64,000 nt of DNA from an uncultured Clostridia bacterium (GCA_964403285.1 CAYOFG010000002.1:21104-85103); one strand, 5' to 3'; positions 2,379 through 33,252 are shown, counted from the first letter of the stretch. The notes: generated from the letters alone by a model not told the origin. Translations and numbers: made by a program.

Positions 2379-2402
2379 TTACTTTTTAAAAGGAGGTTTA
2401 GA

Positions 2403-5837: not shown

Positions 5838-5850
5838 GAAGACTGTAGCT

Positions 5851-5894: not shown

Positions 5895-5932
5895 GGCTAC
5901 AAAAAAAGATAATGGTCTTGAAGGAGGTAAAG

Positions 5933-6835
5933 GTGAAAAAAATTCTTATTCTTTCTATTTTTCTGGTTCTGGTTCTGGCAAATGGTTTATGGGCAAAAGG
6001 AGCAGGGACATCCAGCGCGATTGTGCTCCAGCAGCCGATAGGCGCAAGAGCCTCGGGGATGGCAGAGGCTTATACTGCGGTGGGGGGAGAAATATGTGTC
6101 CTCCATTATAATCCAGCGAGCTTGATTTCTCTTCCTGGTCGAGAGGCTGCCTTCAGCTATCAGCGAGGCCTAGCCGATGATAGTTTTATGAGTCTTCTTT
6201 ATGGCCAGCCAACTTCTGTGGGAGTCTTCGCAGGGGCTTTCTCCTACTACACAGCGGGAGACATTGACCTGATCGACCTTGACGGAAATGAGTGGACGGC
6301 AAAGGCAGAGCAGGATTTTGTAATACTGGCTGGCTTTGCCCGCAAGTTTGTGGAGAATTTACCGATGGGCATAAACCTGAAGATAGTCTCCTCAAGACTC
6401 GTAGAAGTCAAGACGGGTACGGCTTTTGCAATAGATCTGGGAGGACTTTACTACACACCAATAGAAGGTCTGGCGGGAGGATTGGCGATTCGAAATTTGG
6501 GGACAACGCTTAAATTCCTCGATGAAAGTGATTCTCTTCCTTTGACAATTTCCGTTGGGGCTGCTTTTCAGAAGCATTTTGGCAGCCAGAAAATTTTACT
6601 GAGCGCAGATTTCCCTTTTTTGGTTTATGAACAGAAAGTTACTCCAGCAGTTGGTTTTGAGTTTGACTGGCGAGAGATGGTTCAGGGAAGAATTGGTTAT
6701 AAATTCAACATTGATGATACTGGACTTGCTCTGGGTATGGGATTCTCGTATCAGAGCTATTTCATTAACTATGCCTTTGGCCTGGCAGACAGGTTAGAAA
6801 ATGGACACCGGGTAAGTCTGGGCGTAAGATTTTAA
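5933..6835 (+). CDS. FadL-like outer-membrane beta-barrel protein (PorV / PorP-SprF / PorQ-like), partner of the upstream CTD protein
   Basis: GTG start at 5933 lies 5 nt after RBS aaggagg. Signal peptide KKILILSIFLVLVLANGLWA. N-terminal FadL-like motif GARASGMAEAYTAVGG...YNPASL. Ends in aromatic-rich beta-strands (…VSLGVRF). The 5891 ORF-track start would run through the upstream hairpins. Confidence 0.6.
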   Translation: MKKILILSIFLVLVLANGLWAKGAGTSSAIVLQQPIGARASGMAEAYTAVGGEICVLHYNPASLISLPGREAAFSYQRGLADDSFMSLLYGQPTSVGVFAGAFSYYTAGDIDLIDLDGNEWTAKAEQDFVILAGFARKFVENLPMGINLKIVSSRLVEVKTGTAFAIDLGGLYYTPIEGLAGGLAIRNLGTTLKFLDESDSLPLTISVGAAFQKHFGSQKILLSADFPFLVYEQKVTPAVGFEFDWREMVQGRIGYKFNIDDTGLALGMGFSYQSYFINYAFGLADRLENGHRVSLGVRF

Positions 6836-12357: not shown

Positions 12358-12488
12358 CAAAAAGTATCCTGTCTCCTTTCTTGACAAGAGAAAGCGTGAA
12401 AAAAAGTAGCCTGTCCCCTTTTTTGGTGGGTATTGTTGATGGTTCGTCAACAAGAGACGAGTCAGAACAATGGGAACAAATAAGCAGA

Positions 12489-14225
12489 ATGTGTTATGCA
12501 CTGGAAGTCTATGAATGGTACAAGCCTGAGATATATATAAAAGGACCTCTGGCTTTGGGTCAAGCAGACTACGGCATACTCAACAGAGATTTGCGGCCGG
12601 TTAATAATAAGGATGGCCGCTATACATTATTTTTTCATGGTGAGATATATAACTACAAAGACTTAAAAGATGAAATTGGGATAAGAGAATCTATTTCTGC
12701 TGCGAAACTTCTCTTATTACTTTACGAAAAATATAAGAATGACCTCATTTTCAAATTAAAAGGAGCTTTTAATATAATTATCTGGGACGGGAATGAAAGA
12801 AAATTAACCGTTATCAATGACCGGTACGGGCTACGGCCTATATATTATGCACGAGGTAAAAATAGACTATACCTGGCTTCAGAAGTGAAGGCAATTTTGG
12901 CGTGTAATGATGTTTCCAAAAATATTGACCACTCTGCCATTGCCAGCCTGTTCTTCTTTGGCTTCGTAATGGAAAACAAAACTTATTTTGAATCAATCAA
13001 ATTGCTGCCGCCTGCATCATTGTTAGTCCTTAAGAACAATGAAATTTCTATCTCTAATTATTGGGACTTCAATTTTTTAGACAGGGACAAGGGCAAAACT
13101 CAGGATTATTACGAACAAAAACTGGGAAGACTCATATTGCAGGCGATAGAAAGGCATACAGAAGACGGTGCCAGAATTACTGTTCCTTTGAGCGGTGGAT
13201 TGGATTCCCGGACTATTCTGGCGAGCATACCTAAGGAATATTATCCAATAAATACTGTTACCTTCGGAACAGAAGATATGAATGATGTCAAGATTGCCAG
13301 GCAGGTATCAGATGCATTAGGAGCTAATCATCATTATCTTGAGATCTCACCTCAAGACATTATTTGCAATGCGAAAAAGATAGTAAATATAACTGATGGA
13401 ATGATATCTTTTCTCCATTCTACGGGGAATATGAAACTTGAATTAATAAGAGATTACACCGATGTTTGCCTTGATGGAATGCAGCCCTTTGGCAGCTTTT
13501 TCAGTCCCTTTGCCATTTTCAAAAGCAAAGAGAAGTTATTAATTGCCGACTATCTTTTCCAGCCAATTGCCAAGGATTTGGCAAAGTCTCTTTTTATTCC
13601 TTCCTATTACAGAAAAATAAAGGATTATCCCAGAGAAATTATGGGAGATATTTCCCTCAAGTGTAAGTCCACATCTGCCAGTAGTATCATAGACTATTCT
13701 ATTGCTACGCAATATGTGCGGCGCTTTGTAAATTACGGCAATCTTGTTAAGAGAACCCACGTGGAGGTGAGAAGTCCTTTTTTTGATAATGACCTCGTTG
13801 ATTTCATCGTTAACACTCCCCCTCACGAAAGAAGATATCAATATCTATACACGCACACTTTTTCCCGGCTTTTTCCCAAACTGGCAAGAATCCCCTGGGA
13901 AAAGACGGGATTGCCTGTTGATGCAACCAATAGCTTTGCCAAAATGACTTTATCTTTGGTTAAGAAACGTTTGAAGAAAAAGATGGGCGGGGCTTCCTCA
14001 ATTAATCTCTTTGCCAAGTATACTCAATGGTCGAGGGAGAACGAAAATTTAATCACCTTTATCTGCAGCACGTTGTTGGATGGAAAAGGTTATAGTAGAA
14101 GTGTTCTGAATATTAAGACCGTGGAACGTATTCTCCAGGAACATATTAGAGGCAAATTTAATCATATGGAACTTATCTCCCGGCTTCTAACTTTTCAGTT
14201 GTGGAGTCGACTTTTTATTAATTAG
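12489..14225 (+). CDS. asnB: asparagine synthetase (glutamine-hydrolysing) family amidotransferase, AsnB/WbpS-like
   Basis: Class-II glutamine amidotransferases require Cys immediately after the initiator Met; MCYALEV... at 12489 provides this. Glutaminase motifs LALGQADYGILNRD and QPVNNKDGRYTLFFHGEIYNY. PP-loop ITVPLSGGLDSRTILA. The ORF-track start at 12333 adds 52 residues that would bury Cys2. Confidence 0.8.
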   Translation: MCYALEVYEWYKPEIYIKGPLALGQADYGILNRDLRPVNNKDGRYTLFFHGEIYNYKDLKDEIGIRESISAAKLLLLLYEKYKNDLIFKLKGAFNIIIWDGNERKLTVINDRYGLRPIYYARGKNRLYLASEVKAILACNDVSKNIDHSAIASLFFFGFVMENKTYFESIKLLPPASLLVLKNNEISISNYWDFNFLDRDKGKTQDYYEQKLGRLILQAIERHTEDGARITVPLSGGLDSRTILASIPKEYYPINTVTFGTEDMNDVKIARQVSDALGANHHYLEISPQDIICNAKKIVNITDGMISFLHSTGNMKLELIRDYTDVCLDGMQPFGSFFSPFAIFKSKEKLLIADYLFQPIAKDLAKSLFIPSYYRKIKDYPREIMGDISLKCKSTSASSIIDYSIATQYVRRFVNYGNLVKRTHVEVRSPFFDNDLVDFIVNTPPHERRYQYLYTHTFSRLFPKLARIPWEKTGLPVDATNSFAKMTLSLVKKRLKKKMGGASSINLFAKYTQWSRENENLITFICSTLLDGKGYSRSVLNIKTVERILQEHIRGKFNHMELISRLLTFQLWSRLFIN

Positions 14226-14321: not shown

Positions 14322-15299
14322 ATGAAGGTTTTGGTTATCAGCAATATGTATCCGGGAAAAAATTCTTACCTGGGAACCTTTATAAAACAACAAGTGGAAG
14401 ATATGGAAAATGAAGGTTTGCGCACGACAAAAGTGGTAAAGGATAGAAAAACTTATTCTGCCTATGTGCCTTTTATTTTGAAAAATATCTTTTATTTGCT
14501 TTTTGCTTCTTACGATATAATTCACGCATATTACGGATTTCACTCTGCTCTGTTTGCAGCAATCATAAAAAGAAGGCCTCTGATAATAACTTTTGTGGGA
14601 AGCGATGCATTAAAAGAACCTTCCCGCAATAAGGTGTATCGTATCCTGCAAAAATTTGTTATAGCACGGGCTGACCATATCATTGCTGTAAGTAGTAAGA
14701 TAAAAAATGTCCTTATTTCTGATTTGGGAGCAGACTCCAATAAGATATCAGTGATTACTTTTGGTATCGACTTTGACCTCTTTAAACCCTCGCCGCAGGA
14801 TAAAGTGAGAGAGAAATTGGGTTTTCCGTCTGATATGAAACTCGTTTTGTTTCCCAGTAATCCCCAGAGAATCGAAAAAAGATTCGACATCTTTAACAGA
14901 GCCGTAAAATTGCTGCAGGAAGAGAATCAAAATATTCTGCCCATAATCCTGAGTAATAACAGGCGCCCATATTCTGAGATTCCCTTGGTTATGAATGCTT
15001 GTGACGTATTAGTATTAACTTCTGACTCAGAAGGTTCCCCTACAGTAATAAAAGAGGCGTTAGCCTGCAACCTGCCTGTTGTCTCTGTTGACGTTGGCGA
15101 TGCGCGAGAGGTAATCAAAGATATTGCCAATTGCTACCTTTGCAAACAGGAGCCCGTTGATATTGCCGAAAGTATAAAATTAGTTCTGGATAAAAAGACA
15201 AGGAGTGCGGGAAGAGATAATATCAAACACTTATCATCAAAGAAAATTGCGACAAAAATAATAGAACTTTATACACAAATAACCCAGGGTATTTTATGA
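14322..15299 (+). CDS. glycosyltransferase family 4-like
   Basis: MKVLVISNMYPG start typical of GT4. C-terminal …TSDSEGSPTVIKEALACNLPVVSVDVGDAREVI…. Confidence 0.7.
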   Translation: MKVLVISNMYPGKNSYLGTFIKQQVEDMENEGLRTTKVVKDRKTYSAYVPFILKNIFYLLFASYDIIHAYYGFHSALFAAIIKRRPLIITFVGSDALKEPSRNKVYRILQKFVIARADHIIAVSSKIKNVLISDLGADSNKISVITFGIDFDLFKPSPQDKVREKLGFPSDMKLVLFPSNPQRIEKRFDIFNRAVKLLQEENQNILPIILSNNRRPYSEIPLVMNACDVLVLTSDSEGSPTVIKEALACNLPVVSVDVGDAREVIKDIANCYLCKQEPVDIAESIKLVLDKKTRSAGRDNIKHLSSKKIATKIIELYTQITQGIL

Positions 15300-16261
15300 A
15301 CACATTAATCACAGGAATTGCCGGTTTTACGGGAATCCATTTAGCAGAATACCTGTCGTCCCCGGATAGGCATAGCGACAATATAGATCTGTATGGCATT
15401 GATATTATAAGAGAGCTCGGCGAAGATGCCCAGCGCGTCTTAGAAAAAGTAGAGGTCCTCACTTGTGACATCCTGGATAAAGAAGAAACGAAAAATACTT
15501 TAGAGGAGATTGAACCCGATAGAATTTTTCACTTAGCAGGTTTGACCTTTGACCCAGATTCCCATCAGTCTCCGGAAAGATTCTATTCTACAAATGTTTT
15601 CGGGACTATCAACTTACTGGAGGGAGTTAAAGAACTGGGAATTAATCCCCTAATCCATATTGCTTGCTCCAGTGCTGAATATGGCTTGATACTGGAAAAT
15701 GAGAATCCGGTTATGGAAACTAACCATTTCCGGCCGATAAGCCCGTACGGAATAAGTAAACTTGCTCAAGATATGGTGGGATATCAATATTACAAAAATT
15801 ATGGATTAAGAATTGTTCGCACAAGAACTTTTAATATCACGGGACCGAGAGAGAAGGGAAATTTTGTATGTTCCAACTTTGCTCGCCAAATAGCGCTGAT
15901 TGAAAAGGGTAAACAAGAAGCGACAATTTATGTCGGTAACTTAGATAGTAAGAGAGATTTTGTGGATATTAGAGACGTGGTGAAGGCCTATTGGCTGGCA
16001 GTGGACAAAGGAATTTCAGGAGAAGTTTATAACCTTTGTTCAGGAAAGGCATATTCAATAGGCGAGATGTTAAACATTTTGTTACAGATGACAAAAGAGA
16101 ATATAATTATTAAGCAGGATGCTGAAAGAATGCGGCCATCCGACATTCCTTTACAGGTTGGCAGCTTCCAGAAATTTCACAAACAAACGGGCTGGGAACC
16201 TATCATATCTCTGCAAGAGACATTAAAGGATTTGCTCAACTATTGGCGAAGAAAAGTCTAA
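15296..16261 (+). CDS. NAD-dependent epimerase/dehydratase (extended SDR)
   Basis: TGIAGFTGIHLAEYL Rossmann motif. Catalytic YxxxK (SPYGISKLAQD). Start overlaps the previous stop (ATGA). Confidence 0.8.
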   Translation: MNTLITGIAGFTGIHLAEYLSSPDRHSDNIDLYGIDIIRELGEDAQRVLEKVEVLTCDILDKEETKNTLEEIEPDRIFHLAGLTFDPDSHQSPERFYSTNVFGTINLLEGVKELGINPLIHIACSSAEYGLILENENPVMETNHFRPISPYGISKLAQDMVGYQYYKNYGLRIVRTRTFNITGPREKGNFVCSNFARQIALIEKGKQEATIYVGNLDSKRDFVDIRDVVKAYWLAVDKGISGEVYNLCSGKAYSIGEMLNILLQMTKENIIIKQDAERMRPSDIPLQVGSFQKFHKQTGWEPIISLQETLKDLLNYWRRKV

Positions 16262-16281
16262 TAAACAAGGGGAAAGAATTT

Positions 16282-17271
16282 ATGGACTGGAAACGAAAAA
16301 CTGTTCTTGTAACTGGAGCTGGTGGATTTATTGGTAGCCATTTAACGGAAAAGTTAGTTGACTTAGGAGCGAAAGTCAAAGCTTTTGTCCGTTACAACTC
16401 CCGTAACGATTGGGGCTTAATACAAACTTTGCCTTCAGGTACGAAAGAGAAAATGGAAGTGATTATGGGTGATTTAAGAGATTCCGAAACCGTCAAAAGC
16501 GTGATGCAGGATGTTAATGTAGTTTTCCATCTGGGAGCTTTAATCGCTATTCCTTACTCCTATATTCATCCCAGAGAAGTGGTGGAAACGAATATTATGG
16601 GAACCTTAAATATTTTAAATGCGGCAAAAGAATACAAACCGGAAAAAATAATCCATACTTCTACGAGTGAAGTTTATGGAACAGCTCAATACGTACCCAT
16701 TGACGAGAAACATCCCCTGCAAGGGCAATCGCCGTATTCAGCCAGTAAAATAGGTGCGGATAAGCTTGCGGAAAGTTTTTACAGGTCGTATGACCTGCCA
16801 ATCAATACATTAAGACCATTTAACACTTATGGCCCACGACAGTCGGCAAGAGCGGTCGTTCCCACAATTATCACTCAAGCGCTGGCGCAAAACAAGGTTT
16901 TCCTTGGGTCTTTAGAGCCGACCAGGGATTTATCTTACGTTGACGATATAGTTGATGGCTTTATTAAAGCAGCGGAATCGGAAAAGTCTATTGGCGAAGT
17001 TATCAATATCGGTTCCGGTTTTGAGATTTCCATAAAGGATTTAGCAGATAAGATAATTTCCTTGATAGGAAAAAAGATAAAGATAATTTCCGATCCTGGA
17101 CGGATAAGACCACCAAAAAGCGAAGTGGAAAGATTAATGGCTGATAATTCTAAGGCAAAAGAGTTACTCGGTTGGAAACCCAAGGTTTCCTTGGACGAGG
17201 GTTTAAGAAAGACTGTGGACTGGTTTTCAAAATTTCAAAACAGATATAGACCAGATATCTACACCATTTAG
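16282..17271 (+). CDS. NAD-dependent epimerase/dehydratase (extended SDR; sugar-nucleotide 4,6-dehydratase/decarboxylase-like)
   Basis: ATG at 16282 lies 7 nt after RBS aagggga. VLVTGAGGFIGSHLTEKL Rossmann motif. Catalytic SPYSASKIGADKL. The 16243 start in the ORF track would overlap the previous gene. Confidence 0.8.
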   Translation: MDWKRKTVLVTGAGGFIGSHLTEKLVDLGAKVKAFVRYNSRNDWGLIQTLPSGTKEKMEVIMGDLRDSETVKSVMQDVNVVFHLGALIAIPYSYIHPREVVETNIMGTLNILNAAKEYKPEKIIHTSTSEVYGTAQYVPIDEKHPLQGQSPYSASKIGADKLAESFYRSYDLPINTLRPFNTYGPRQSARAVVPTIITQALAQNKVFLGSLEPTRDLSYVDDIVDGFIKAAESEKSIGEVINIGSGFEISIKDLADKIISLIGKKIKIISDPGRIRPPKSEVERLMADNSKAKELLGWKPKVSLDEGLRKTVDWFSKFQNRYRPDIYTI

Positions 17272-17279: not shown

Positions 17280-17993
17280 ATGGACGCAATTATCCTCGCA
17301 GGAGGCAAAGGAACGAGATTGGCACCATACACAACGATTTTCCCCAAACCATTAATGCCCATAGGAGATGTGCCTATTCTGGACGTAGTTTTGCGGCAAT
17401 TGAAGGGTTATGGATTTACCAAGGTAATTATTGCAGTAGGTTATCTGGCGGAACTTCTGGAGACCTATTTTGGGAACGGAAGCAAATATGGAATCGACAT
17501 TCAATATTCGCGCGAAAGTAAACCTCTGGGAACAGCAGGGCCTCTTTCTCTAATTGAGAATTTAACGAATCCCTTCCTGGTTATGAACGGGGATATTTTG
17601 ACGGCGCTTAATTATTCTACGCTTATCAATTATCATAAAAAGAAAGAGGCTATAGCCACAATTGCTATGCATAAGAGAACAGTTGATGTTGATTTTGGCG
17701 TCATTGAATTAAATTCGGATAGTGAAATTACCAATTACATTGAGAAGCCTAACTTAAATTATCTGGTGAGTATGGGGATTTATATCTTTGACACCAAGGT
17801 TCTGAAGTATATCAAGACGGATGAGAAATTAGATTTCCCGGATTTAGTAAGAAAGTTACTGAAAAATAACGAAAAGGTCATTGGCTACCCAAGTGAAGAC
17901 TACTGGTTAGATATCGGCCGCCATGATGATTATGAAAAAGCCATTGCCGAGTTTGAAAAAAATAAAAAGAAATTTCTGCCCGGTCAGTTTTAG
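17280..17993 (+). CDS. sugar-phosphate nucleotidyltransferase (glucose-1-P cytidylyl/thymidylyl/mannose-1-P guanylyl-transferase family)
   Basis: AIILAGGKGTRLAPYT...KPLMPIG signature (GxGTRL) of the NTP_transferase family. Confidence 0.75.
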   Translation: MDAIILAGGKGTRLAPYTTIFPKPLMPIGDVPILDVVLRQLKGYGFTKVIIAVGYLAELLETYFGNGSKYGIDIQYSRESKPLGTAGPLSLIENLTNPFLVMNGDILTALNYSTLINYHKKKEAIATIAMHKRTVDVDFGVIELNSDSEITNYIEKPNLNYLVSMGIYIFDTKVLKYIKTDEKLDFPDLVRKLLKNNEKVIGYPSEDYWLDIGRHDDYEKAIAEFEKNKKKFLPGQF

Positions 17994-18006
17994 GGATTGA
18001 AGGAAG

Positions 18007-19221
18007 ATGGAAACCACTCTCATAAGAGATATGGGAAAGAAAATCTATCACAAAATTCCTGCTTTTTTGCGCTGGTTTTTCTGGCCCATTAAGTTAGCAT
18101 TTAAACTTATCAATATCTCTAAATTGGATCTATGGATTATGAGTGGAGAAGAAATCACCAGCTACCAGAAGCTTTCCATTATTTACGCTGGTGAGGAAAT
18201 CAATAGAAATTACTTTGCAAAGCTCGCTTACGATAAATCTTTTAGTGAAAATTACCTAGGAAAAGTGTGGCTTTGGAAAATTTTCAAAGTAATTAGGGAA
18301 AAAGGTCATAATTACTCCTTAATGGTGGTTGCAGTGGATGGACCTTTCTGCACATTATTTGGAAGCGGGACCTATTTTAATATTCCATTCTGGGTGTCGA
18401 GTTTAACCAATATTTCTGCGGACAGTTCTTTGCTTACAAAAAGTGATAGTGCTAAGACCGACATAAGGAAAATAAGAAATAGCAAGCTTTCCTCTGAAAT
18501 AACACAAGACCGCTCTCAGTTTGATAACTTCTATTACAATATGTACAGGCCTTATATTGCTGCGGCCCATGGGGCTCGAGCTATCATCGTGGAACATGAT
18601 TGTATGAAAAACGAGTTTAAAAATAATGAGTTACTTCTCATCAAGAAAGGAAACGAATATATAGCAGGAACCCTGCTGGTTTATAAAAAAAGGCAATGCC
18701 GTCTTGTATATATGGGCGTAAAAGGTGGCAATTTTGATTATGTCAAAGATGGTGCCGTGGGTGCCATATTCCATTACGCAATTCATCGGTTCAAAGAAAA
18801 GGGCTATAAAGAAGTAGACTTTGGAGGTTCAAGAGCGTTCTTGAAAGACGGGGTGTTGCATTACAAGAAGAAGAGGGGTGCTTCGCGAATTTCTTATAGC
18901 TCTTGGCATGGTGGAATCTTTTTTGTTGAGCTATTAACCAACACGCCCGGATTGAAGGCGTTCCTCTTAAATAATCCCTTCATTTTTGTAGATAAGAGAA
19001 AAATCAACGGGGCGGTATTTGTTGATTGCGACCGTGGATTTTCCCAGGAAGAAATAGGCAGAATCTATAAAGATTATTACTTTGACGGTATGTCTAATCT
19101 TTATATTTATCACTTTGGAGATAATAGTAAGCGTCTACACGAGATACCAACATTACAATTCTCAGATAGAGACAGAGTAAGATTCTGCGCAGCAGAGAAA
19201 TTATTTAGAAAAGACCGGTAA
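18007..19221 (+). CDS. FemAB / GNAT (Acetyltransf_6)-like protein
   Basis: C-terminal region …GVKGGNFDYVKDGAVGAIFHYAIHRFKEKGYKEVDFGGS…LKDGVLHYKKKRGAS resembles the DfGGs…FKrkfG core of FemX/CelD-like aminoacyl/acyl transferases. Assigned by motif similarity only. Confidence 0.45.
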   Translation: METTLIRDMGKKIYHKIPAFLRWFFWPIKLAFKLINISKLDLWIMSGEEITSYQKLSIIYAGEEINRNYFAKLAYDKSFSENYLGKVWLWKIFKVIREKGHNYSLMVVAVDGPFCTLFGSGTYFNIPFWVSSLTNISADSSLLTKSDSAKTDIRKIRNSKLSSEITQDRSQFDNFYYNMYRPYIAAAHGARAIIVEHDCMKNEFKNNELLLIKKGNEYIAGTLLVYKKRQCRLVYMGVKGGNFDYVKDGAVGAIFHYAIHRFKEKGYKEVDFGGSRAFLKDGVLHYKKKRGASRISYSSWHGGIFFVELLTNTPGLKAFLLNNPFIFVDKRKINGAVFVDCDRGFSQEEIGRIYKDYYFDGMSNLYIYHFGDNSKRLHEIPTLQFSDRDRVRFCAAEKLFRKDR

Positions 19222-19279
19222 CCATGGCAATGGAGAAAGGATTGAAAAATCCTATCTAACACACCATAGGAAGAAGAGA

Positions 19280-19999
19280 TTGAGAATGTATATCAACCCC
19301 GAAAAATGTATTGGCTGTATGGAATGTATACCCTATTGTCCTGCGGGGGCAATAATAGCAACAGGAAACAAGTGTATAGTTGCTGAAGGTAGATGCTTTG
19401 AATGTTATGTTTGCCTTACATCGGGAATTTGTCCTGTAGATGCTTTTGAGAAAATCCCATTGAAATGGCCGAGAATACTAAGACATATCTTTAGTTCAGT
19501 GGCGATGATTCACAAAGGTACGGGAATAGACGGGAGAGGAACTGCGGAAATGAAGACTAACGACGTTACCGGACGTTATCGTCACGGCGAGGTAGGGTTT
19601 ACAGTGGATGTGGGGAGACCAGGCATAGGCACGACTTTTGAGGATATAGAAAAAATTTCTATGGCAGTTGCCAGAGTAGGTGTTGCATTTGAACAGATGA
19701 ACCCGCTCACAAAGTTTATGAAGGATAAAGTTAAAGGGATACTTAGAGATGATATAAAAAGAGAGCGAATCCTCTCATGTGTATTAGAATTCAAAACTGA
19801 GGATACTAAGACAGTCTCTGTTATAAATACTCTTAGGGAGGTTTCTAAGTTAGTTAATACAGTTTTTAGTGTGGGTTGTATTTGCAGGTGCAGACCTGAT
19901 GGCACGATACCTGTTAAAAATATGTTAGACGAAGCTGGCATCTTCTATCGACCAAACGGTAAGATTAACATTGGGCTGGGACGGCCATTGGCTCCTTAA
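19280..19999 (+). CDS. 4Fe-4S dicluster domain protein with uncharacterised C-terminal domain
   Basis: Two ferredoxin-type cysteine motifs: CIGCMECIPYCP and CFECYVCLTSGICP. Confidence 0.6.
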   Translation: MRMYINPEKCIGCMECIPYCPAGAIIATGNKCIVAEGRCFECYVCLTSGICPVDAFEKIPLKWPRILRHIFSSVAMIHKGTGIDGRGTAEMKTNDVTGRYRHGEVGFTVDVGRPGIGTTFEDIEKISMAVARVGVAFEQMNPLTKFMKDKVKGILRDDIKRERILSCVLEFKTEDTKTVSVINTLREVSKLVNTVFSVGCICRCRPDGTIPVKNMLDEAGIFYRPNGKINIGLGRPLAP

Positions 20000-20014
20000 C
20001 AAGGAAGGATATTT

Positions 20015-20662
20015 ATGACACACACATTGCATCGACAGGGAAGCGTAGAATCGCTAAAAGAGGATTATGTTGTACTTGTTATGGGAGAAGATATTCCCTT
20101 TGATATATATAGGAGGCGCCTGCAAAAAAGATTTCCTTATATCTATGAAATGGTTAAGAAAGTCCTTCTAAACTTCGGAATTCTTAAGCTACTAAGGATT
20201 ATTAGAAAAGCCAAGCCAACCGGGTCTTACAGAAGCCCCGTGTTTAATAACAAGAAAGAATTAACCAGTTATCTGAAAGAGTTAAAAGAAAGAAACATGG
20301 GAAAGTCTGTGGTCGTCTCCGGACTCTTTGACGAAGTTAACGATTGCCTGAAGGAGTTAAACTTATCTCCACATACTGTTCAATTCTCCCTGGGAACCTT
20401 TGGCAAAAAAGAGCTATTACCAAATAAAGAGATTCTGGAGATAACTACTATGTGCGGCCACCATATGATATCGCCAGGACTAGTAGAAAAACTGGCAAAC
20501 GATATAAAGAATGGAAGTATATCCCTCGAGGAAGCAACAGAAGTGATGAGTGAACAATGTGTTTGCGGGGTGTTTAACAAAGAGCGAACCTGTAAACTAA
20601 TGGAAACCCTGGTGAGTAAGTTATATTCACTTTCATTGAGCAAGACGGGAATGGCTTATTGA
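20015..20662 (+). CDS. hypothetical protein
   Basis: Operon context only; RBS aaggaagg upstream. No recognisable motif. Confidence 0.4.
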   Translation: MTHTLHRQGSVESLKEDYVVLVMGEDIPFDIYRRRLQKRFPYIYEMVKKVLLNFGILKLLRIIRKAKPTGSYRSPVFNNKKELTSYLKELKERNMGKSVVVSGLFDEVNDCLKELNLSPHTVQFSLGTFGKKELLPNKEILEITTMCGHHMISPGLVEKLANDIKNGSISLEEATEVMSEQCVCGVFNKERTCKLMETLVSKLYSLSLSKTGMAY

Positions 20663-20668
20663 ATTTAT

Positions 20669-21535
20669 GTGGAGATTTGGATGTTGTTAAAAGAAAAAAC
20701 AAAAAAAGTTAAGGAAAAAGAATACTTTCATAAATTATTTTCCAATCAGAGTAATATAGATTATTGGGAATCCATTTATGTCCGACAGGATTTCTCCGGA
20801 GTCTGTCTCAGGAGGAGAATGGCCCAGGCATTATCATGGTTAGATAACACAAATTTACCCCAAAATTCCAAAATTTTGGATGTTGGGTGCGGTGCGGGTG
20901 TGATGGCTAAGGAAGCTGCAAATAGAGGCTATGAAATTTTCGGAATGGACTACTCTTATAATATGATTAAAAAAGCTAAAACCATCTGTAACGTAAGTAC
21001 AAAATCCGGAATAATATTTTTCCAAGGAGATATAGAATCTTTGCCATTCAAAAGTTCAGTTTTTGATATGGTGTTGTGTTTGGGCGTAATTTCATATTTA
21101 AAATCCGAAAATAAAGCACTACATGAACTGTCAAGAGTTCTAAAACCTGACGGGACTTTGATTCTGAGTATCCTAAATAAATTTTCCTTAGCAAAGTTTC
21201 TGGACATATCAGTTCCTGTAAAACGAAGACTCCAAAGGATAGCGAGTAATAGAATTATGTCCTGGAAAAAGGAAACAGAAATCAAAAAAAGTGACTCTCC
21301 CATAAAAAGCTACTTTATTCCCAGTTTAAGAAAGGCACTGAAAACTGCTGGGTTTACAGAATTAGATTGCATAGCGGTTCAATACGGGCCGTTGACATTT
21401 TTTGGTCGAAAGGTTTTTCCCGATGAGTTTAACATAAATATAACTAATTTTTTAGAAAAATTTTCAAATATCCCTGTTATTATGTTTCTGGGGAATATGT
21501 GCTTATTTAGATTGAAAAAAGTGGTAGGAAAATAG
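20669..21535 (+). CDS. class I SAM-dependent methyltransferase
   Basis: Motif I ILDVGCGAGVMAKEAA. Post-I acidic residue (GMDYS). Motif II-like FDMVLCLGVISYL. Confidence 0.7.
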   Translation: MEIWMLLKEKTKKVKEKEYFHKLFSNQSNIDYWESIYVRQDFSGVCLRRRMAQALSWLDNTNLPQNSKILDVGCGAGVMAKEAANRGYEIFGMDYSYNMIKKAKTICNVSTKSGIIFFQGDIESLPFKSSVFDMVLCLGVISYLKSENKALHELSRVLKPDGTLILSILNKFSLAKFLDISVPVKRRLQRIASNRIMSWKKETEIKKSDSPIKSYFIPSLRKALKTAGFTELDCIAVQYGPLTFFGRKVFPDEFNINITNFLEKFSNIPVIMFLGNMCLFRLKKVVGK

Positions 21536-21569
21536 AAAAAGGGCAATTCCCGGAAAAGGAGGATGAAAA

Positions 21570-22883
21570 TTGGCTATAGGAACTGCGCCTTGCCTTCTAT
21601 ATTATTTGTGGAAAGTAAGAAAGGCTAAACGACTTAATCCATCTGAACTCGAAGAGTTGCAAAACAGAAAATTAAGAGCCATAGTTAAACACGCTTACAG
21701 AAATGTCCCTTATTACCATAAGTTATTCAATTCTGCCAAGGTAAGGCCGGAAGATATTAAGACAAAGGAGGACTTAGTCAAAATACCAATAACTACCAAA
21801 AAAATGCTACAGGAACTACCTATCAACCAGCGAGTTTCCCGTGGCGTAGACATAAATAAATGTATAAAGTGCAGGACAAGTGGCTCTACGGGAGAACCTC
21901 TGGATATATTTCTTAGCAAGAAAGAGTTGTGTTATAGAATTGCTATGCAAACCAGAGTCTACGGATTCAATTTAGCAGAGAAAAAAGTAAACATACTTGA
22001 CAGCACGCCTCTTCCTGCAGAAGGGTCGCCAGCAACGATTTTTAGAAAACTCAAGCAATGTTTGAATCATCTGGGATTATGGAGGAGGTATTACTTTTCA
22101 CTTTTCGAGGAACCTCACGAACTGGTATCAAAGTTATTAGAAATTAAACCTGATATTATAGAGACTCAGCCGTCGACGTTGAAGTTGATATCTGAATTTG
22201 TGAAGGAAAATAATGTCAGCGGGATTTCGCCTAAATCGATCTTCACCAGAGCAGAGCTGTTAAACAGAGAGGATAGAAAGCAAATAGAGACTGTATTTGG
22301 CGCCAAATTAACTGACCTTTACGGTGCTGTTGAATTCGGCATCATTGCCTGGGAGTGCGAAAAACATTCAGGATATCACATTAACAGTGACATTGTGCTG
22401 GTGGAGGCATTAAGAGATAATCAGCAAGTTTACGGAGAAGAGGGGGAAATGGTCTGCACTGATTTGATTAATTATACGATGCCTTTCATAAGATACGCTG
22501 TGGAAGATATAGTTACCCTGAGTAAAGAGGAACATAATTGCGGAAGTAATTTTCCCCTCATAAAGTTGATAGAGGGGAGGTCGAATGATTTCATAACTTT
22601 GCCTTCAGGCAAAATCATTTCTCCTATACCTCTCATAATTATCCTGGAGGAGATAGACGGAATTAGCCAATTCAGGCTGTTACAGGAAAACATAAACGCA
22701 TTTGATATCCAAATAGTCAAGGGGCGTAATTTCAAAGAGACCATTATAGAGGAAGTGAAGCGTGCATTAAGAGAAATACTGGGCAGAAACACTCGGATTA
22801 GTGTAAATATTGTGGATGAAATACCCAGAGAAAAATCGGGTAAGATACGGCCAATCGTGTCCAAGGTACCCATAAATCTTTAA
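21570..22883 (+). CDS. phenylacetate-CoA ligase / F390 synthetase / CapK-like adenylate-forming enzyme
   Basis: AMP-binding motif RTSGSTGEPL. Overall ~430-aa length and a C-terminal lysine region (EIPREKSGKIRPI) typical of PaaK-family enzymes. Confidence 0.7.
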   Translation: MAIGTAPCLLYYLWKVRKAKRLNPSELEELQNRKLRAIVKHAYRNVPYYHKLFNSAKVRPEDIKTKEDLVKIPITTKKMLQELPINQRVSRGVDINKCIKCRTSGSTGEPLDIFLSKKELCYRIAMQTRVYGFNLAEKKVNILDSTPLPAEGSPATIFRKLKQCLNHLGLWRRYYFSLFEEPHELVSKLLEIKPDIIETQPSTLKLISEFVKENNVSGISPKSIFTRAELLNREDRKQIETVFGAKLTDLYGAVEFGIIAWECEKHSGYHINSDIVLVEALRDNQQVYGEEGEMVCTDLINYTMPFIRYAVEDIVTLSKEEHNCGSNFPLIKLIEGRSNDFITLPSGKIISPIPLIIILEEIDGISQFRLLQENINAFDIQIVKGRNFKETIIEEVKRALREILGRNTRISVNIVDEIPREKSGKIRPIVSKVPINL

Positions 22884-22902
22884 GCGAAGTGAGGATTATT
22901 GG

Positions 22903-24120
22903 ATGAAAGACTTTAAAACTGAATTTGGTTCCCAGCTTATATGCAATATTATAGATAAGAAATTGGGTTTATTAGGATATATCGTCATAGATTCCGCGAT
23001 CAACGGGCACGCATGTGGTGGGCTAAAGATGTTACCCGATGTTTCTATTCCTGAACTGCAAGGTCTGGCGAGAGTAATGACTTTAAAATTTAGTTTTTTG
23101 GGAATGAGAGAAGGTGGAGCAAAGGCAGGAATAATTGGCGACTCATCTATGCCGGGTGAAGAAAAACTGGCTTTACTTAGAACTTTTGCAGAGAGCGCAA
23201 GTCCCCTGTTGAAAACCCGTGCTTACGTTCCTGCCTCTGATATGGGAACCACCAATGAGGAGATAAGATATATGCTGGAGTCGATAGGCTTAAAAATACC
23301 TCCCAGTAAGGTTCACAGAAAAGAAGAAGGAGGCTTTTATACCGGTTTTTCCGTTTTTGCCGGAGCCCTGGCAGCTGCAAAGCATATAAATTTAGACTTA
23401 TCTCAATCTACCCTTGCCGTAGAAGGTTTTGGAAAGGTAGGAAGTTCTGTAGCTAAAGTTTTCTGGCAAAGAGGAACAAAGGTGGTTGCCATATCAACGT
23501 CCAACGGAGCAATATACGACCCTGAGGGGTTAGATATAGATGGGTTGATGCAGATAAAAAATGAGGTTGGAGACGACGTAGTAAATGTCTATGGAAAAGG
23601 GAAAAAAATTGAAAAAAGCGAATTACTCACGCTGGATGTAGATATATTATCCCCTTGCGCAAGACATCATAGTATTAATCTAGAAAACGTAGAAAAAATA
23701 AGAGCTAAGATTATTTGTGCTGGCGCTAACATTCCCGTGACTTCTGAAGCGGAGAGAGTTTTATATCGCGAGAAAAAATTATACCTTCCAGATTTCATCA
23801 CAAATTGTGGAGGGATATTGGGGAGTAATATGGAAAACGCCGGGCTGAGTAATCAGTTCATTGAAAATTTTATCATTCAAGAAATCGGTAACAAAATATC
23901 AGAAATAATCGAAGCTTCCAGGAAAAAGAATATGAGCCCTGTGGAATTTGCTGAAATGGAAGCAGAAGAAAAATTTGCATGGATAAGAACGAAATCCAAG
24001 GAAAAAACGGTAAAAAACAGACTATTCAATATTGCTTTAAAAGTTTATAGAAAGAACTTAATACCGAAGTGGCTTGCTAAACTCTATGCGTCAAGACATT
24101 TTAGAACAAGGTTGGGTTAA
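22903..24120 (+). CDS. Glu/Leu/Phe/Val-family amino-acid dehydrogenase (leucine/phenylalanine dehydrogenase-like)
   Basis: Signatures GYIVIDSAINGHACGGLKM and GGAKAGIIGD (catalytic Lys region); ASDMGTT; dinucleotide fold LAVEGFGKVGSSVAKVF; DILSPCA, KIICAGANIP and PDFITNCGG all align with Bacillus LeuDH/PheDH. Confidence 0.7.
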   Translation: MKDFKTEFGSQLICNIIDKKLGLLGYIVIDSAINGHACGGLKMLPDVSIPELQGLARVMTLKFSFLGMREGGAKAGIIGDSSMPGEEKLALLRTFAESASPLLKTRAYVPASDMGTTNEEIRYMLESIGLKIPPSKVHRKEEGGFYTGFSVFAGALAAAKHINLDLSQSTLAVEGFGKVGSSVAKVFWQRGTKVVAISTSNGAIYDPEGLDIDGLMQIKNEVGDDVVNVYGKGKKIEKSELLTLDVDILSPCARHHSINLENVEKIRAKIICAGANIPVTSEAERVLYREKKLYLPDFITNCGGILGSNMENAGLSNQFIENFIIQEIGNKISEIIEASRKKNMSPVEFAEMEAEEKFAWIRTKSKEKTVKNRLFNIALKVYRKNLIPKWLAKLYASRHFRTRLG

Positions 24121-24154: not shown

Positions 24155-25471
24155 ATGAAGATAAGTGTTTTCGGATTGGGGTACGTGGGATGTGTGTCCA
24201 GTGCCTGTCTGGCAGAGAATGGACATAAGGTTATGGGAGTGGATGTAAATCAGACTAAAGTGGATATTATAAATAGTGGAAAAAGTCCGGTCATAGAAAA
24301 AGATATAGATGAAATCATTAATAGGGTTGTAACGACTACGAAATTAATAGCTACAACAGACGTTAGAAAAGCAGTACAAAATTCTGAAATATCTATGATC
24401 TGTGTAGGTACACCAAGTAAGGAGAATGGTAGTCTGGATTTGAAATATGTTAAAAGAGTATGCGCGGAAATTGGCGCTGGCTTGCAGGAAAAAGATAGTT
24501 ATCATGTAGTAGTCGTCAGGAGCACTATGTTGCCGGGGAGTGTGGAGGGAGAAGTGATTCCCACCTTAGAGAAGACTTCCGGCAAGAAACCAGGAGCTGA
24601 CTTTGGAGTGTGCATGAATCCCGAGTTTATGCGAGAAGGCAGTTCGGTTTATGACTACTATCATCCCCCGATGATAGTTATTGGGGAGCTGGACAAGAGA
24701 AGTGGGGAGATTGTTCAACAGATCTACGCTGATATTGACGCTCCCGTTGTCAGGACATCGATAAAAGTAGCGGAGATGATAAAGTACGTAAATAATTCTT
24801 TTCACGGGCTTAAAGTATGTTTCGCCAATGAAATAGGGAATATATGCAAAAAACTGGGGATTGACAGTCATCAGGTAATGGAAATTTTTTGTCTGGATAC
24901 AAAACTCAACTTATCTCCGTATTATCTTAAACCAGGATTTGCTTTTGGAGGTTCGTGTCTTCCCAAGGACTTGCGAGCTTTGCTATATAAAGGTCAAAGA
25001 GAAGATTTAAGATTGCCACTCCTTAATTCTATCCTGGATAGCAACGAGAATCAAGTAAAGATGGGAATAAATTTAATAAAAAAGACAGGGAAGAAAAAGA
25101 TAGGAATTTTTGGGTTTAGCTTTAAGCCTGGCACCGATGACCTGCGAGAAAGTCCTATGGTGGAATTAACTGAGACTTTATTGGGGAAAGGCTATAAAAT
25201 TAGTATCTATGACAAAAATGTCTCCATCGCAAAAATTTTTGGCGCTAATAGACAGTATATTGAGAAAGAAATTCCTCACATATCATCCCTGATACGTTCG
25301 TCTATAGAAGAGGTTTTGAGTAATTCGGAAGTGTTAGTGATTGGAAATAACTCTAAGGAATTTAAGAAAATACCTGAGTTAATGCGAGAGGACCAAATAA
25401 TGATTGACCTGGCGAGAATCTTAGATGGAAAAAATGAAAAGAAAAGTAGATATCAGGGAATCTGCTGGTAA
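24155..25471 (+). CDS. nucleotide-sugar 6-dehydrogenase (UDP-glucose / UDP-N-acetylhexosamine dehydrogenase family)
   Basis: N-terminal MKISVFGLGYVGCVSSACLAENGHKVMGVD Rossmann motif. Catalytic cysteine motif GGSCLPKD. About 438 aa. Confidence 0.85.
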   Translation: MKISVFGLGYVGCVSSACLAENGHKVMGVDVNQTKVDIINSGKSPVIEKDIDEIINRVVTTTKLIATTDVRKAVQNSEISMICVGTPSKENGSLDLKYVKRVCAEIGAGLQEKDSYHVVVVRSTMLPGSVEGEVIPTLEKTSGKKPGADFGVCMNPEFMREGSSVYDYYHPPMIVIGELDKRSGEIVQQIYADIDAPVVRTSIKVAEMIKYVNNSFHGLKVCFANEIGNICKKLGIDSHQVMEIFCLDTKLNLSPYYLKPGFAFGGSCLPKDLRALLYKGQREDLRLPLLNSILDSNENQVKMGINLIKKTGKKKIGIFGFSFKPGTDDLRESPMVELTETLLGKGYKISIYDKNVSIAKIFGANRQYIEKEIPHISSLIRSSIEEVLSNSEVLVIGNNSKEFKKIPELMREDQIMIDLARILDGKNEKKSRYQGICW

Positions 25472-26648: not shown

Positions 26649-26698
26649 ATGTCAAAAATGAATCATAAATAACAAATTTACGAAAGGGGTTGGTTGTT

Positions 26699-28147
26699 AT
26701 GATAAAAGAATATGAAGCATTTTTAAAGAAGTTGATGATATCTGCCGATTTGTTAATAATGGCTGTTTCTTTTATCTTGGCTTATTTCCTGCGGGCGAAT
26801 ATCTATTACTTCTATAAACTTGACTTATTCCCTTCAAAAGTGATAATGGGTACAATTTATCCCCTGGATAATTATTTGTGGCTACTGTTAATTATTCTTC
26901 CTGTATGGTATGCCTTGCTTAGTTTTCAAGGGCTTTATGAATCTTTTAGAACTAAGAGACTTACAGTAATAGTCTGGATTATTGTAAAGACAGGGTTTCT
27001 TGCTACTTTAATTACCGGAACTTTAATTTTTGTTCTTAAGCTTACCTATATTAGTAGAATCTTTATGTTTTTCTTTTCCGGCGTAGCTGTTAGCCTTTTA
27101 AGTTTAGAAAAGGCAATGCTAATTCAGAGCTTTAAGCACGCTCGCCCAGGAGAGGATAGTTATAAACACTTGTTGGTTGTGGGAACTGGAAAAAGAGCTG
27201 AAAAGTTTGTTCAGATGGTTAAACAACATCCCGAATGGGGTATAAAAATAGTTGGCATTGTAGATGATGAACCAGATAAAATAGGTGAGGAGGTCTCAGA
27301 CATCAAGGTCATTGGGCTATTAAAGGATGTTCCCGATATCCTCCATGAGAAAATAGTTGATGAAGTTGTATTCATTGTCCCCCGGTTATGGCTGAGCCGT
27401 ATTGAACAAAGTATATTAAGTTGTGAGAGAGAGGGGATAAAAGTATCTGTTGCCGTAGATCTATTTAATTTCAAAATTGGAAAGTTACAAGCAACGGACT
27501 TAGGAGGCATTCCTCTTATGCGCCTGGAGACAACCCCTGGTTCGCCGTGGGAGTTGTTTATAAAAAGGAGCCTTGATATCGTTGTCTCTTTGGTGGGATT
27601 AGTTCTTTTGGCGCCACTTCTCCTATTGATAGCAGTGGTTATCAAGTTGAATTCTCCTGGGTCACTATTTTTTAAGCAAGAACGAAACGGAATGAATGGG
27701 AGAAAATTTGGCTTGCTAAAATTTAGAAGTATGGTGGTTGGTGCCGAGGAGATGCAAGAAGATCTTCTTGCTTTAAACGAAATGGATGGTCCCGTTTTTA
27801 AGATTAAAGACGACCCACGAATGACAAAAATTGGCAAGTTCTTGCGTAAGACCAGTCTGGATGAGTTACCTCAATTAATCAATGTTTTGAAAGGCGATAT
27901 GAGCCTTGTCGGTCCTCGCCCACCCATCCCGGGAGAAGTCACTAACTACGAGACATGGCAAAGAAGAAGACTGAGTATGAGACCTGGCATAACTTGTTTT
28001 TGGCAAATTAGTGGGAGAAGTGAAATTGGTTTCGAAGAGTGGATGAAACTCGACTTGGAATATATTGATAATTGGTCCCTGGGGTTAGATTTCAAAATCC
28101 TGCTTAACACAATACCCGTTGTCCTCTTCGGGACGGGAGCAAGGTGA
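26699..28147 (+). CDS. undecaprenyl-phosphate sugar phosphotransferase (WbaP / bacterial sugar transferase, priming enzyme)
   Basis: Four or five N-terminal TM helices and a C-terminal catalytic domain (SLDIVVSLVGLVLLAPLLLLIAVVIKL…RNGMNGRKFGLLKFRSM…DELPQLINVLKGDMSLVGPRP). ATG at 26699 lies 9 nt after RBS aaagggg. Confidence 0.85.
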   Translation: MIKEYEAFLKKLMISADLLIMAVSFILAYFLRANIYYFYKLDLFPSKVIMGTIYPLDNYLWLLLIILPVWYALLSFQGLYESFRTKRLTVIVWIIVKTGFLATLITGTLIFVLKLTYISRIFMFFFSGVAVSLLSLEKAMLIQSFKHARPGEDSYKHLLVVGTGKRAEKFVQMVKQHPEWGIKIVGIVDDEPDKIGEEVSDIKVIGLLKDVPDILHEKIVDEVVFIVPRLWLSRIEQSILSCEREGIKVSVAVDLFNFKIGKLQATDLGGIPLMRLETTPGSPWELFIKRSLDIVVSLVGLVLLAPLLLLIAVVIKLNSPGSLFFKQERNGMNGRKFGLLKFRSMVVGAEEMQEDLLALNEMDGPVFKIKDDPRMTKIGKFLRKTSLDELPQLINVLKGDMSLVGPRPPIPGEVTNYETWQRRRLSMRPGITCFWQISGRSEIGFEEWMKLDLEYIDNWSLGLDFKILLNTIPVVLFGTGAR

Positions 28148-28279
28148 AATTCGGTACTGGGATTATGGCGTCAGAATATCCCGCCTTTAAACCCTCCTTT
28201 CAAAATTAACAAAATTTTGGAGTCCTCCCGAAAGGGAGGTTGAAAAAACAAACCCTTGTTTTCGCAAGGAGGTATGGAA

Positions 28280-33016: not shown

Positions 33017-33252
33017 TCATTGTGTTATACTTAGATTGTAGTAATCATAAGCTGTTCTGAAAACTGAATATTTTATGGCTCGATAAAGGCAAACCATTCG
33101 AAAGGGTGGGACGTAAAACCGCGGGTCCCCGATATATCAGGGACAGCCGGGTTACCGAAGCCAGCAAAGTAATAGATCCCTGGTTTTTCGAATGGAAAGC
33201 CAGGGTTTTCTATTTTATTAGCCATAAACGACTCTTCAAGGAAGGTAGTGCT

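Follow-up and report, generated by a model that had tools for sequence, protein, structure and literature searches.

A 64,000-nucleotide stretch of DNA from an uncultured Clostridia bacterium (GCA_964403285.1, CAYOFG010000002.1:21104-85103), the whole of which is called here the window, carries in its first 36 kb a Wzx/Wzy-type exopolysaccharide (EPS) locus, on the + strand throughout, and within this locus lie seven open reading frames (ORF1 to ORF7, Table 1) which we tentatively read, with a confidence a little short of even, as an amino-acid tailoring cassette of the exopolysaccharide. What is conserved in it is a triad of genes, those of a class I S-adenosylmethionine (SAM)-dependent methyltransferase (ORF5), of an amino-acid dehydrogenase of the ELFV family (ORF7) and of a PaaK/CapK-like adenylate-forming ligase (ORF6), which recurs at 35–50% identity, its order shuffled, in bacterial and archaeal-looking glycan loci. 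An earlier note on this DNA had treated six of the genes together as one block; the conserved unit is not this block but the triad.

The methyltransferase, dehydrogenase and ligase

The domain labels used here come from Pfam and NCBIfam profile searches, together with precomputed Pfam records for identical proteins. In ORF7 both ELFV domains lie above the gathering threshold, ELFV_dehydrog (PF00208) with E 2e-46 and 159.5 bits against a cutoff of 23.4, and ELFV_dehydrog_N (PF02812) with E 1e-17 and 64.5 bits against 25.3. The earlier note was therefore right to call it an ELFV dehydrogenase, but not to call it Leu/Phe-type: its nearest solved relatives are the hexameric glutamate dehydrogenases (GDHs; that of Thermotoga maritima, 1b26, E 5e-43), and the leucine (LeuDH) and phenylalanine (PheDH) dehydrogenase chains of the PDB score below these. 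The NCBIfam models for GDH, LeuDH and tryptophan dehydrogenase (TrpDH) all remain far below cutoff on ORF7, at about a quarter of it or less (159.8 bits against 620 and 159.9 against 750 for GDH, 88 against 600 for the TrpDH ScyB).

With the hexameric GDHs and the Leu, Phe, Val and Trp dehydrogenases ORF7 shares its Pfam domains, the catalytic lysine (Lys74), the lysine of the alpha-carboxylate (Lys62), the aspartate (Asp113) and the dinucleotide-binding GxGxxG; unlike the GDHs, it lacks the lysine of the side chain, is shorter than the T. maritima enzyme by about 30 N-terminal residues, ends, as does the rest of its subfamily, in a conserved basic/hydrophobic stretch of some 45 residues with an invariant Pro, and is found in a biosynthetic context, not in that of central metabolism. 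In GDH, the lysine of GP(x)KGG binds the gamma-carboxylate of glutamate. Residue alignment with the T. maritima enzyme gives GHACGG in place of its GPAKGG, while MTLK, GGAKAG and the aspartate of PASD are kept, and across 22 members of the subfamily (42–82% identity) the position of the side-chain lysine, Cys38 in the window, is taken by C, S, Y, H, A, N, T or F, never by K, K62, K74, D113, N276 and G303-G304 being invariant. By what is established for ELFV enzymes, ORF7 is then a working dehydrogenase which anchors the alpha-carboxylate and whose side-chain pocket is different and varies with the lineage. As the whole subfamily is without the glutamate side-chain lysine, it is not a housekeeping GDH, and the bona fide GDH that the earlier note had named as a refutation of its view is not what the sequence shows. 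A further candidate role, amination of the 4-keto sugar produced by the LegB-like dehydratase upstream, is unlikely, given that the lysine binding the alpha-carboxylate is invariant in the subfamily.

The ligase, ORF6, has the motifs of the ANL enzymes intact (TSGSTG at 103, YGAVE at 251, GRSND at 336 and the C-terminal GK at 424) together with the CapK_C domain, so that its description as a PaaK/CapK-like adenylating enzyme stands, though it is not a PaaK equivalog: it matches PaaK in the PDB (4r1l, E 1e-20), but against the PaaK model TIGR02155 it reaches E 6e-33 and 114 bits, far below the cutoff of 646.3, and against its best NCBIfam model, the DVU_1553 family, 142.6 bits of the 300 required. 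The methyltransferase, ORF5, likewise keeps the name it had been given, with 87.4 and 78.4 bits, both above threshold, for Methyltransf_11 and Methyltransf_25, and among the NCBIfam models it scores best with the DVU_1556 family, reaching 80.6 bits where 155 are required. Both DVU families take their names from genes that are neighbours in a single Desulfovibrio locus, a hint that ligase and methyltransferase may be paired there in a parallel way; ORF6 and ORF5 attain only about half of the respective cutoffs.

A scan of metagenome contigs with a profile of the ELFV subfamily gave 80 loci, and look-ups of individual homologues added more (loci related to the window carry L-numbers, homologous proteins in other contigs P-numbers). 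Neighbours were clustered over 82 non-redundant ELFV loci, many of the metagenome loci being short, so that the counts of co-occurrence are lower bounds. The class I methyltransferase is present in 36 of the 82, at a median position directly upstream and with its stop often overlapping the ELFV start, followed by the CapK-like ligase (28), GT4 (16) and GT2 (14) glycosyltransferases, short-chain dehydrogenases/reductases (SDRs, 12), NTP_transferase (11), ORF3 and ORF4 (10 each), an AsnB-like enzyme and a B12-binding radical SAM enzyme (9 each), the nucleotide-sugar 6-dehydrogenase and a GFO/IDH/MocA oxidoreductase (6 each), and ORF2 (5). Some 20 loci have the CapK gene no more than 250 nt away from the ELFV gene, and in at least 14 the methyltransferase gene stands directly upstream of it, often overlapping (stop over start in L087, L088, L089, L097-L099, L117 and others), so that methyltransferase and dehydrogenase are translationally coupled in many relatives. 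When only the longer loci are considered (32 non-redundant, at least 8 kb, ELFV at least 300 bits), glycan genes accompany 23, a methyltransferase 20, CapK 17 and the B12-binding radical SAM enzyme 5, with at least one of these last three in 28; around the more distant ELFV proteins, glycan genes occur in only 2 of 11 loci. The association with glycan loci that the earlier note had expected is thus conserved. Examples are L087, where nucleotidyltransferase (NT), methyltransferase (MT), ELFV and CapK genes are flanked by those of GT2 and GT4; L088, with the order NT-radical SAM/SPASM-MT-ELFV; and L006 and L023, the latter binned as Bathyarchaeia, where ORF4, MT, ORF3, CapK and ELFV appear in another order at 38–60% identity, in both cases with GT2 genes.

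Among the close relatives (65–92% identity) the gene content varies. The order NT-ORF2-ORF3-ORF4-MT-CapK-ELFV is common to the window and L007; L008, L090 and L093 have the same without ORF2; L091 and L095 have NT-ORF2-CapK-ELFV without ORF3, ORF4 and MT, Ugd coming next in L091 and L095 ending at the ELFV gene; L092 has two ORF2 paralogues, CapK, ELFV and Ugd, again without those three; L096 has two ORF2 paralogues with ORF3, ORF4, CapK and ELFV; and in L002 the methyltransferase is broken and there are in addition a second CapK, an Orn/DAP-type decarboxylase and an ATP-grasp enzyme. ORF3, ORF4 and MT are therefore present jointly (window, L007, L008, L090, L093) or absent jointly (L091, L092, L095). 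The 6-dehydrogenase gene follows the ELFV gene by 34 nt in the window and at a similar distance in L007, L091, L092 and L093, and is farther off in L002. In other lineages the place of the iron-sulfur (Fe-S) genes ORF3 and ORF4 is taken by another Fe-S enzyme, of the radical SAM/SPASM type in L088 and B12-radical SAM in L106-L135, and this replacement suggests that one kind of precursor is tailored differently from lineage to lineage.

Two further observations concern these relatives. One ELFV branch, at about 39–46% identity (L106, L107, L117, L118, L125, L126, L128, L135, L138), is accompanied by a B12-binding radical SAM enzyme, an HMGL-like synthase, a PALP enzyme and a nitroreductase, with CapK also in L128 and glycosyltransferase genes in L117, and looks like a system for making a chain-extended or C-methylated non-proteinogenic amino acid. 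Homologues of ORF3, ORF4 and ORF7 more than 80% identical to those of the window (P0005, P0009, P0014, P0123, P0124; L007, L008) fall into conflicting bins, Clostridia, Elusimicrobiota, 'bacterium' and Candidatus Lokiarchaeia, which means that either the entire locus has recently been transferred horizontally or the contigs are mis-binned.

The iron-sulfur pair and the accessory genes

ORF3 has eight Cys in two CxxCxxCxxxC-type motifs, that is, the 2x[4Fe-4S] ferredoxin domain of bacterial type which had been assigned to it, at its N-terminus, followed by a conserved alpha/beta domain of about 180 aa without family assignment; its true start is probably 19286. ORF4, rightly listed as an unknown, has no match in Pfam or NCBIfam, and its invariant residues C147, C182, C184, H120 and H149 might bind a metal or a cluster. 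Profile searches with both proteins against PDB sequences returned ferredoxin domains alone or nothing, and a fold search with a model of ORF3 only ferredoxins and generic ACT-like sandwiches. The family of ORF4 is large: 734 homologues by a word-indexed search, 682 clusters at 50% identity by an exhaustive one, and 355 relatives in a profile scan of one genome per species. Since ORF3 and ORF4 are neighbours in the same orientation in 71 of the 77 genome loci that hold an ORF4 homologue, and since in several proteins (for example P0474 and P0483, 31–36% identity across ORF3) a full ORF4 is fused to a full ORF3, the two are taken as one enzyme; in other words, both proteins of the earlier note exist, not as two separate parts but as halves of one widespread enzyme. 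Fusion mining for ORF4 gave as partners only ORF3 or a polyferredoxin, and no catalytic domain from which the chemistry could be read.

Most of the pairs are found outside glycan loci. In Bathyarchaeia, a divergent D-2-hydroxyacid dehydrogenase precedes ORF3-ORF4-polyferredoxin-ThiS-aldehyde:ferredoxin oxidoreductase; in Asgard archaea the order is MFS-ORF3-ORF4-P5CR-like-DUF1028-Zn-ADH; and in Dehalococcoidia, Thermodesulfobacteriota, Bacillota and Synergistales, the pair lies beside GntR-FCD regulators and TctC/TctA or DctM transporters, near LarA-like racemases, HpcH/HpaI aldolases and HMGL-like synthases, often in two or three tandem copies. TctABC transporters are also among the neighbours outside glycan loci. 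From these neighbours, which point to 2-oxo/2-hydroxy carboxylic acids as the class of substrates, and from the ferredoxin domain, which points to redox chemistry, we infer that ORF3-ORF4 acts on such acids by redox chemistry. Separately, the loci with two or three tandem copies by TctC/TctA and GntR in metagenome-assembled genomes of Dehalococcoidia and deltaproteobacteria (L056, L057, L077, L081, L083) look like an expansion of paralogues for different organic-acid substrates.

ORF2 appears as a FemAB/GNAT-like protein in the earlier note, a label that amounts to a guess. Its match to Acetyltransf_6 (PF13480; E 3e-3, 18.1 bits) is under the gathering score of 22, similarly weak matches are given by 6 of 8 homologues (best E 1.3e-3, none at threshold), a search against PDB sequences found no match, and when it was aligned by hhalign with one protein of L088 annotated as Acetyltransf_6 the probability was 0.1. 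In addition, the gene is not conserved, L008, L090, L093 and L002 lacking it and L092 and L096 having two copies, and because it is dispensable among close relatives it cannot be the obligatory transferase. The paralogue pairs (L092:2626-3834 and 5312-6520; L096:493-1704 and 2085-3425) hint that proteins of this type may act repeatedly or on two substrates. As for ORF1, all NCBIfam equivalogs are below cutoff; most simply, it would belong with the two SDRs and serve the LegB-like dehydratase arm, but in L087, L088 and L100 the MT-ELFV cassette, too, begins with an NTP_transferase distantly related to it, which makes a closer tie to the cassette conceivable.

A possible pathway and its alternatives

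The amidation of polysaccharide uronic acids with amino acids is already known, and a CapK-like enzyme for it has genetic support in Vibrio. The VpsH protein of V. cholerae is genetically required for glycine to be added to the L-GulNAcA of the lipid-linked VPS disaccharide, while being dispensable for the assembly of the repeat unit, and its authors raise ATP-dependent activation of the carboxylate as a possibility only (PMC13463779). Compared by description and not by sequence, VpsH resembles ORF6 in being a PaaK/CapK-like protein encoded in a uronic-acid-making Wzx/Wzy locus, and differs in that its amino acid is a common proteinogenic one, with no dedicated amino-acid synthesis genes reported, whereas ORF6 has an ELFV dehydrogenase, a methyltransferase and an Fe-S enzyme coupled to it. 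The same outcome, a capsular uronic acid that carries an amine or amino acid in amide linkage, is produced by ATP-grasp amidoligases (for example for the glucuronamide of Campylobacter jejuni HS:2), which belong to another superfamily and form an acyl-phosphate instead of an acyl-adenylate; L002, as noted above, carries an ATP-grasp gene. AglU of M. maripaludis, which puts threonine onto mannuronic acid, is reportedly CapK/F390-synthetase-like, and the CapK of S. aureus type 1 is said to be linked to taurine. Threonine-amidated uronic acids occur in archaeal N-glycans (PMC11407970), so that the type of product proposed exists in archaea too.

The other part of the scheme has its counterpart in the pathways to the beta-methyl amino acids of natural products, which share its logic, a 2-oxo acid being methylated and then aminated, and its tight gene coupling. 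Their SgvM is an alpha-keto-acid C-methyltransferase, a two-domain zinc enzyme of 338 aa whose zinc is held by two His (PMC10502145). ORF5, compared by description, has 288 aa and is of the Methyltransf_11/25, UbiE/BioC-like type, and in the block the amination would be by a dehydrogenase instead of a transaminase, with C-methylation as one of three possibilities.

On this basis, the pathway could have the following steps: (i) ORF1, the LegB-like dehydratase and the second SDR would supply an NDP-6-deoxy-hexose(NAc), and the downstream 6-dehydrogenase a nucleotide-uronic acid, to judge by their families; (ii) the ELFV enzyme, with NAD(P)H and ammonia, would turn a 2-oxo acid other than 2-oxoglutarate into an amino acid, as its sequence suggests; (iii) the methyltransferase, by virtue of its gene linkage, would methylate the acid or the amino acid, on C, N or O; (iv) more speculatively, ORF3-ORF4 might prepare or modify the 2-oxo/2-hydroxy-acid precursor, following the genomic company it keeps elsewhere; (v) and finally, by analogy with VpsH, the CapK-like ligase would adenylate a carboxylate and form an amide with no separate transferase, the favoured pairing being that of the repeat-unit uronic acid, through its carboxylate, with the newly made amino acid, through its amino group. 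As accessories, ORF2 could perform a second acyl or aminoacyl transfer, and the AsnB-like amidotransferase would probably amidate a remaining carboxylate. Activation of the uronate is favoured because VpsH is required for the addition of glycine to GulNAcA (PMC13463779), because the 6-dehydrogenase gene follows that of the ELFV enzyme here and in L007 and L091-L093, and because the locus is without an aminotransferase for an amino-sugar acceptor. The idea of the earlier note, that a non-standard amino acid is made, possibly methylated, activated and attached, remains reasonable in view of the methyltransferase in 20 and CapK in 17 of the 32 longer loci, with the exception of the FemAB transfer; nor is its direction favoured, activation of the acid followed by a separate transferase, since chemistry of the VpsH type would not need one, and that precedent adds glycine to a uronic-acid residue.

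Several points weigh against the cassette as an amino-acid tailoring system. Both the substrates and the direction of ligation are putative; what ORF6 is seen to share with VpsH is its PaaK/CapK-likeness and a context with an adjacent 6-dehydrogenase; in the archaeal-looking triad loci L006 and L087 a stretch of some 20 kb is without a uronic-acid dehydrogenase, so that the acceptor there may differ or be encoded elsewhere; ORF5, judged by size and type as described, seems not to be an alpha-keto-acid C-methyltransferase of the SgvM kind (PMC10502145); the methyltransferases adjacent to ELFV genes are diverse, at 22–57 bits against ORF5 outside the close clade, and may not all share one function; and ORF3-ORF4, most pairs being outside glycan loci, could have a role in this locus that does not concern the amino acid.

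These points leave room for other explanations. The main one keeps the direction of chemistry of the earlier note: the CapK-like enzyme could adenylate a free amino, 2-oxo or 2-hydroxy acid, perhaps on the way to a CoA thioester, whose acyl group would then pass to a sugar hydroxyl or amine, either through ORF6 itself, as ester or amide without CoA, or through ORF2 as a GNAT-type transferase. Small free acids are what characterised enzymes of the PaaK family activate, and some PaaK-like ligases, among them NatL2, form esters or amides without CoA; the best PDB and NCBIfam relatives of ORF6 are PaaK, AjiA1 and a 'PaaK-like ligase'; the adjacency of ELFV and CapK would suit an ELFV product handed to the ligase, the weak Acetyltransf_6 matches of ORF2 and 5 of its 7 homologues would suit the transfer, and L006 and L087 have no uronic-acid dehydrogenase nearby. 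However, many loci that are otherwise identical do not have ORF2, none of the stricter tests bore out its GNAT assignment, the locus holds no aminotransferase for an amino-sugar acceptor, and the sole genetic precedent in a polysaccharide adds the amino acid to a uronic-acid residue, for which reasons we consider this explanation unlikely, if far from negligible.

A lower probability still, that of a rather improbable event, is given to the notion that only CapK and ELFV, with or without ORF2, decorate the glycan, ORF3-ORF4 and the methyltransferase having been acquired separately as metabolic genes that play no part in the polymer, for example an organic-acid redox enzyme plus a sugar O-methyltransferase. 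L091, L092 and L095, which carry NT-ORF2-CapK-ELFV (Ugd) without the other three genes, speak for it, as do the 71 anaerobe-genome loci with adjacent ORF3-ORF4, nearly all lacking glycan genes, and the fact that sugar O-methyltransferases are common in polysaccharide loci. It would have to accommodate, though, the joint return of ORF3, ORF4, MT, CapK and ELFV, reordered and at 38–60% identity, in L006, L023 and partly L129, contigs binned as Bathyarchaeia among them, as well as the methyltransferase overlapping the ELFV start as the commonest neighbour of the whole subfamily, and the other Fe-S enzymes that fill the ORF3-ORF4 slot (radical SAM/SPASM in L088, B12-radical SAM in L106-L135). By contrast, the presence by chance of an ordinary GDH, a phenylacetate-CoA ligase and a ferredoxin can be regarded as effectively refuted: the best solved relatives of ORF7 are indeed GDHs and some homologues are named 'glutamate dehydrogenase', but the side-chain lysine is absent across the subfamily, 160 bits stand against GDH cutoffs of 620–750 and 114 against the PaaK cutoff of 646, and the co-occurrence with glycan genes is conserved.

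The amino-acid tailoring cassette thus remains the reading that we prefer. Its most far-reaching form, in which ORF3-ORF4 is a new two-subunit and at times fused Fe-S family that acts on 2-oxo/2-hydroxy acids and occurs widely among Asgard archaea, Bathyarchaeia, Dehalococcoidia and sulfate reducers, and is here recruited for the on-site production of a non-proteinogenic methylated amino acid destined for a polysaccharide, is a doubtful proposition for the present.

The exopolysaccharide locus and the significance of the cassette

Table 1. Features of the exopolysaccharide locus and its surroundings, in window coordinates
Feature	Position	Strand	Evidence or remark
Wzz/GNVR chain-length protein	416-1594	+	
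BY-kinase ATPase	1609-2289	+	
PorV-like gene	5891-6835		
Wzy-like polymerase	6850-8340	+	
Wzx flippase	8345-9829	+	
GT4 glycosyltransferases	starts 9859, 14322, 25425	+	
458-aa ORF	10981-12357	+	one N-terminal hydrophobic segment; neither Pfam nor NCBIfam match
AsnB-like glutamine amidotransferase	12333-14225	+	Pfam GATase_7 and Asn_synthase; TIGR01536 E 9e-57, below cutoff
SDR epimerase/reductase, nucleotide-sugar supply	15296-16261	+	GDP_Man_Dehyd E 6e-67; NCBIfam matches all below cutoff
SDR, LegB-like NDP-HexNAc 4,6-dehydratase	16243-17271	+	TIGR04180, 471.4 bits against cutoff 475 (just below)
Seven-ORF block	17280-24120	+	
ORF1, sugar-1-phosphate nucleotidyltransferase	17280-17993	+	NTP_transferase PF00483, E 1e-48
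ORF2, 404-aa soluble protein, candidate GNAT/FemAB-like accessory enzyme	18007-19221	+	sub-threshold Acetyltransf_6
ORF3, Fe-S subunit	19280-19999	+	Fer4 E 7e-8; N-terminal 2x[4Fe-4S] ferredoxin domain
ORF4, partner subunit of ORF3	20015-20662	+	
ORF5, class I SAM-dependent methyltransferase, 288 aa	20669-21535	+	Methyltransf_11 E 1e-24
ORF6, PaaK/CapK-like adenylate-forming ligase	21570-22883	+	PF27533 CapK_C, precomputed for identical protein
ORF7, ELFV-family amino-acid dehydrogenase, distinct subfamily	22903-24120	+	both ELFV Pfam domains
Nucleotide-sugar 6-dehydrogenase, makes uronic acid	24155-25471	+	TIGR03026, 428 bits, above cutoff
Initiating polyprenyl glycosylphosphotransferase	26690-28147	+	TIGR03025, 431 bits
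Secreted beta-helix proteins	from 28256: 28256-29812, 29796-31649, 33106-34851	+	paralogues; FlgD_ig/CHU_C-type C-terminal domains
UPF0164-like genes	31633-32928, 34866-35819	+	follow second and third beta-helix paralogue
c-di-GMP-I-GGC riboswitch	33079-33160	+	RF03167, 71.8 bits against gathering score 59
tRNA gene	36134-36207	+	RF00005, 61.8 bits

The seven ORFs form the contiguous same-strand block that the earlier note had delimited, although its heading left out the nucleotidyltransferase ORF1, which lies inside the limits given. The surroundings are likewise as it had described them, with two SDR sugar-nucleotide enzymes upstream and, downstream, the 6-dehydrogenase, 34 nt from the ELFV gene, then a GT4 and the initiating phosphoglycosyltransferase. 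The gaps within the block are of 13, 58, 15, 6, 34 and 19 nt, and promoter and terminator scans of its region found no enrichment of terminator-like sites and no internal boundary; from this tight packing on one strand, with no such enrichment, the block reads as part of one transcription unit. Its proteins all appear soluble, and all its genes must be real, since each has full-length homologues in other contigs at 65–92% identity. No DegT-type aminotransferase able to create an amino-sugar acceptor is found among the annotated genes of the EPS locus. The AsnB-like enzyme is a probable amidating enzyme for a carboxylate and a recurrent partner of the cassette, L006, L112, L115 and L154 being among the 9 loci with its gene near that of the ELFV enzyme.

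Other elements of the window can be mentioned apart from the block. The 458-aa ORF sits between a GT4 and the AsnB-like gene. [quoted passage not shown] The riboswitch overlaps the listed start of the third beta-helix gene, whose true start codon must be 3′ of the aptamer, and it suggests that c-di-GMP controls a secreted pectate-lyase-like protein beside the locus. The tRNA gene, which comes shortly behind the final UPF0164-like gene of this region, could be the point that bounds the EPS locus. Finally, the cumulative GC skew has its maximum at about 44000-46000, where the genes switch from + to −, with ORFs from 46264 onwards on the − strand, and this point of convergence could be a replication terminus-like switch or just two converging blocks of genes.

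What is new in the block is a dedicated amino-acid supply arm in a glycan locus, with a distinct ELFV subfamily and the recruitment of an uncharacterised Fe-S pair. Amino-acid substituents alter the charge, the antigenicity and the matrix properties of polysaccharides, and to our knowledge the enzymes that install them are mostly still to be named, VpsH, in 2026, being the first genetic assignment of a CapK-like enzyme. If the proposal is true, we know of no earlier polysaccharide locus with its own amino-acid synthesis arm. The combination MT-ELFV-CapK provides a searchable signature for such decorations in uncultured bacteria and archaea, and the ELFV subfamily, with its variable side-chain pocket, offers natural reductive aminases of possible use. 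For the Fe-S pair, with its 682 clusters, no Pfam family and no solved relative, this is a first functional handle, and should its recruitment for the making of a methylated amino acid on the spot prove true, the chemistry of the decoration would be new for any glycan.

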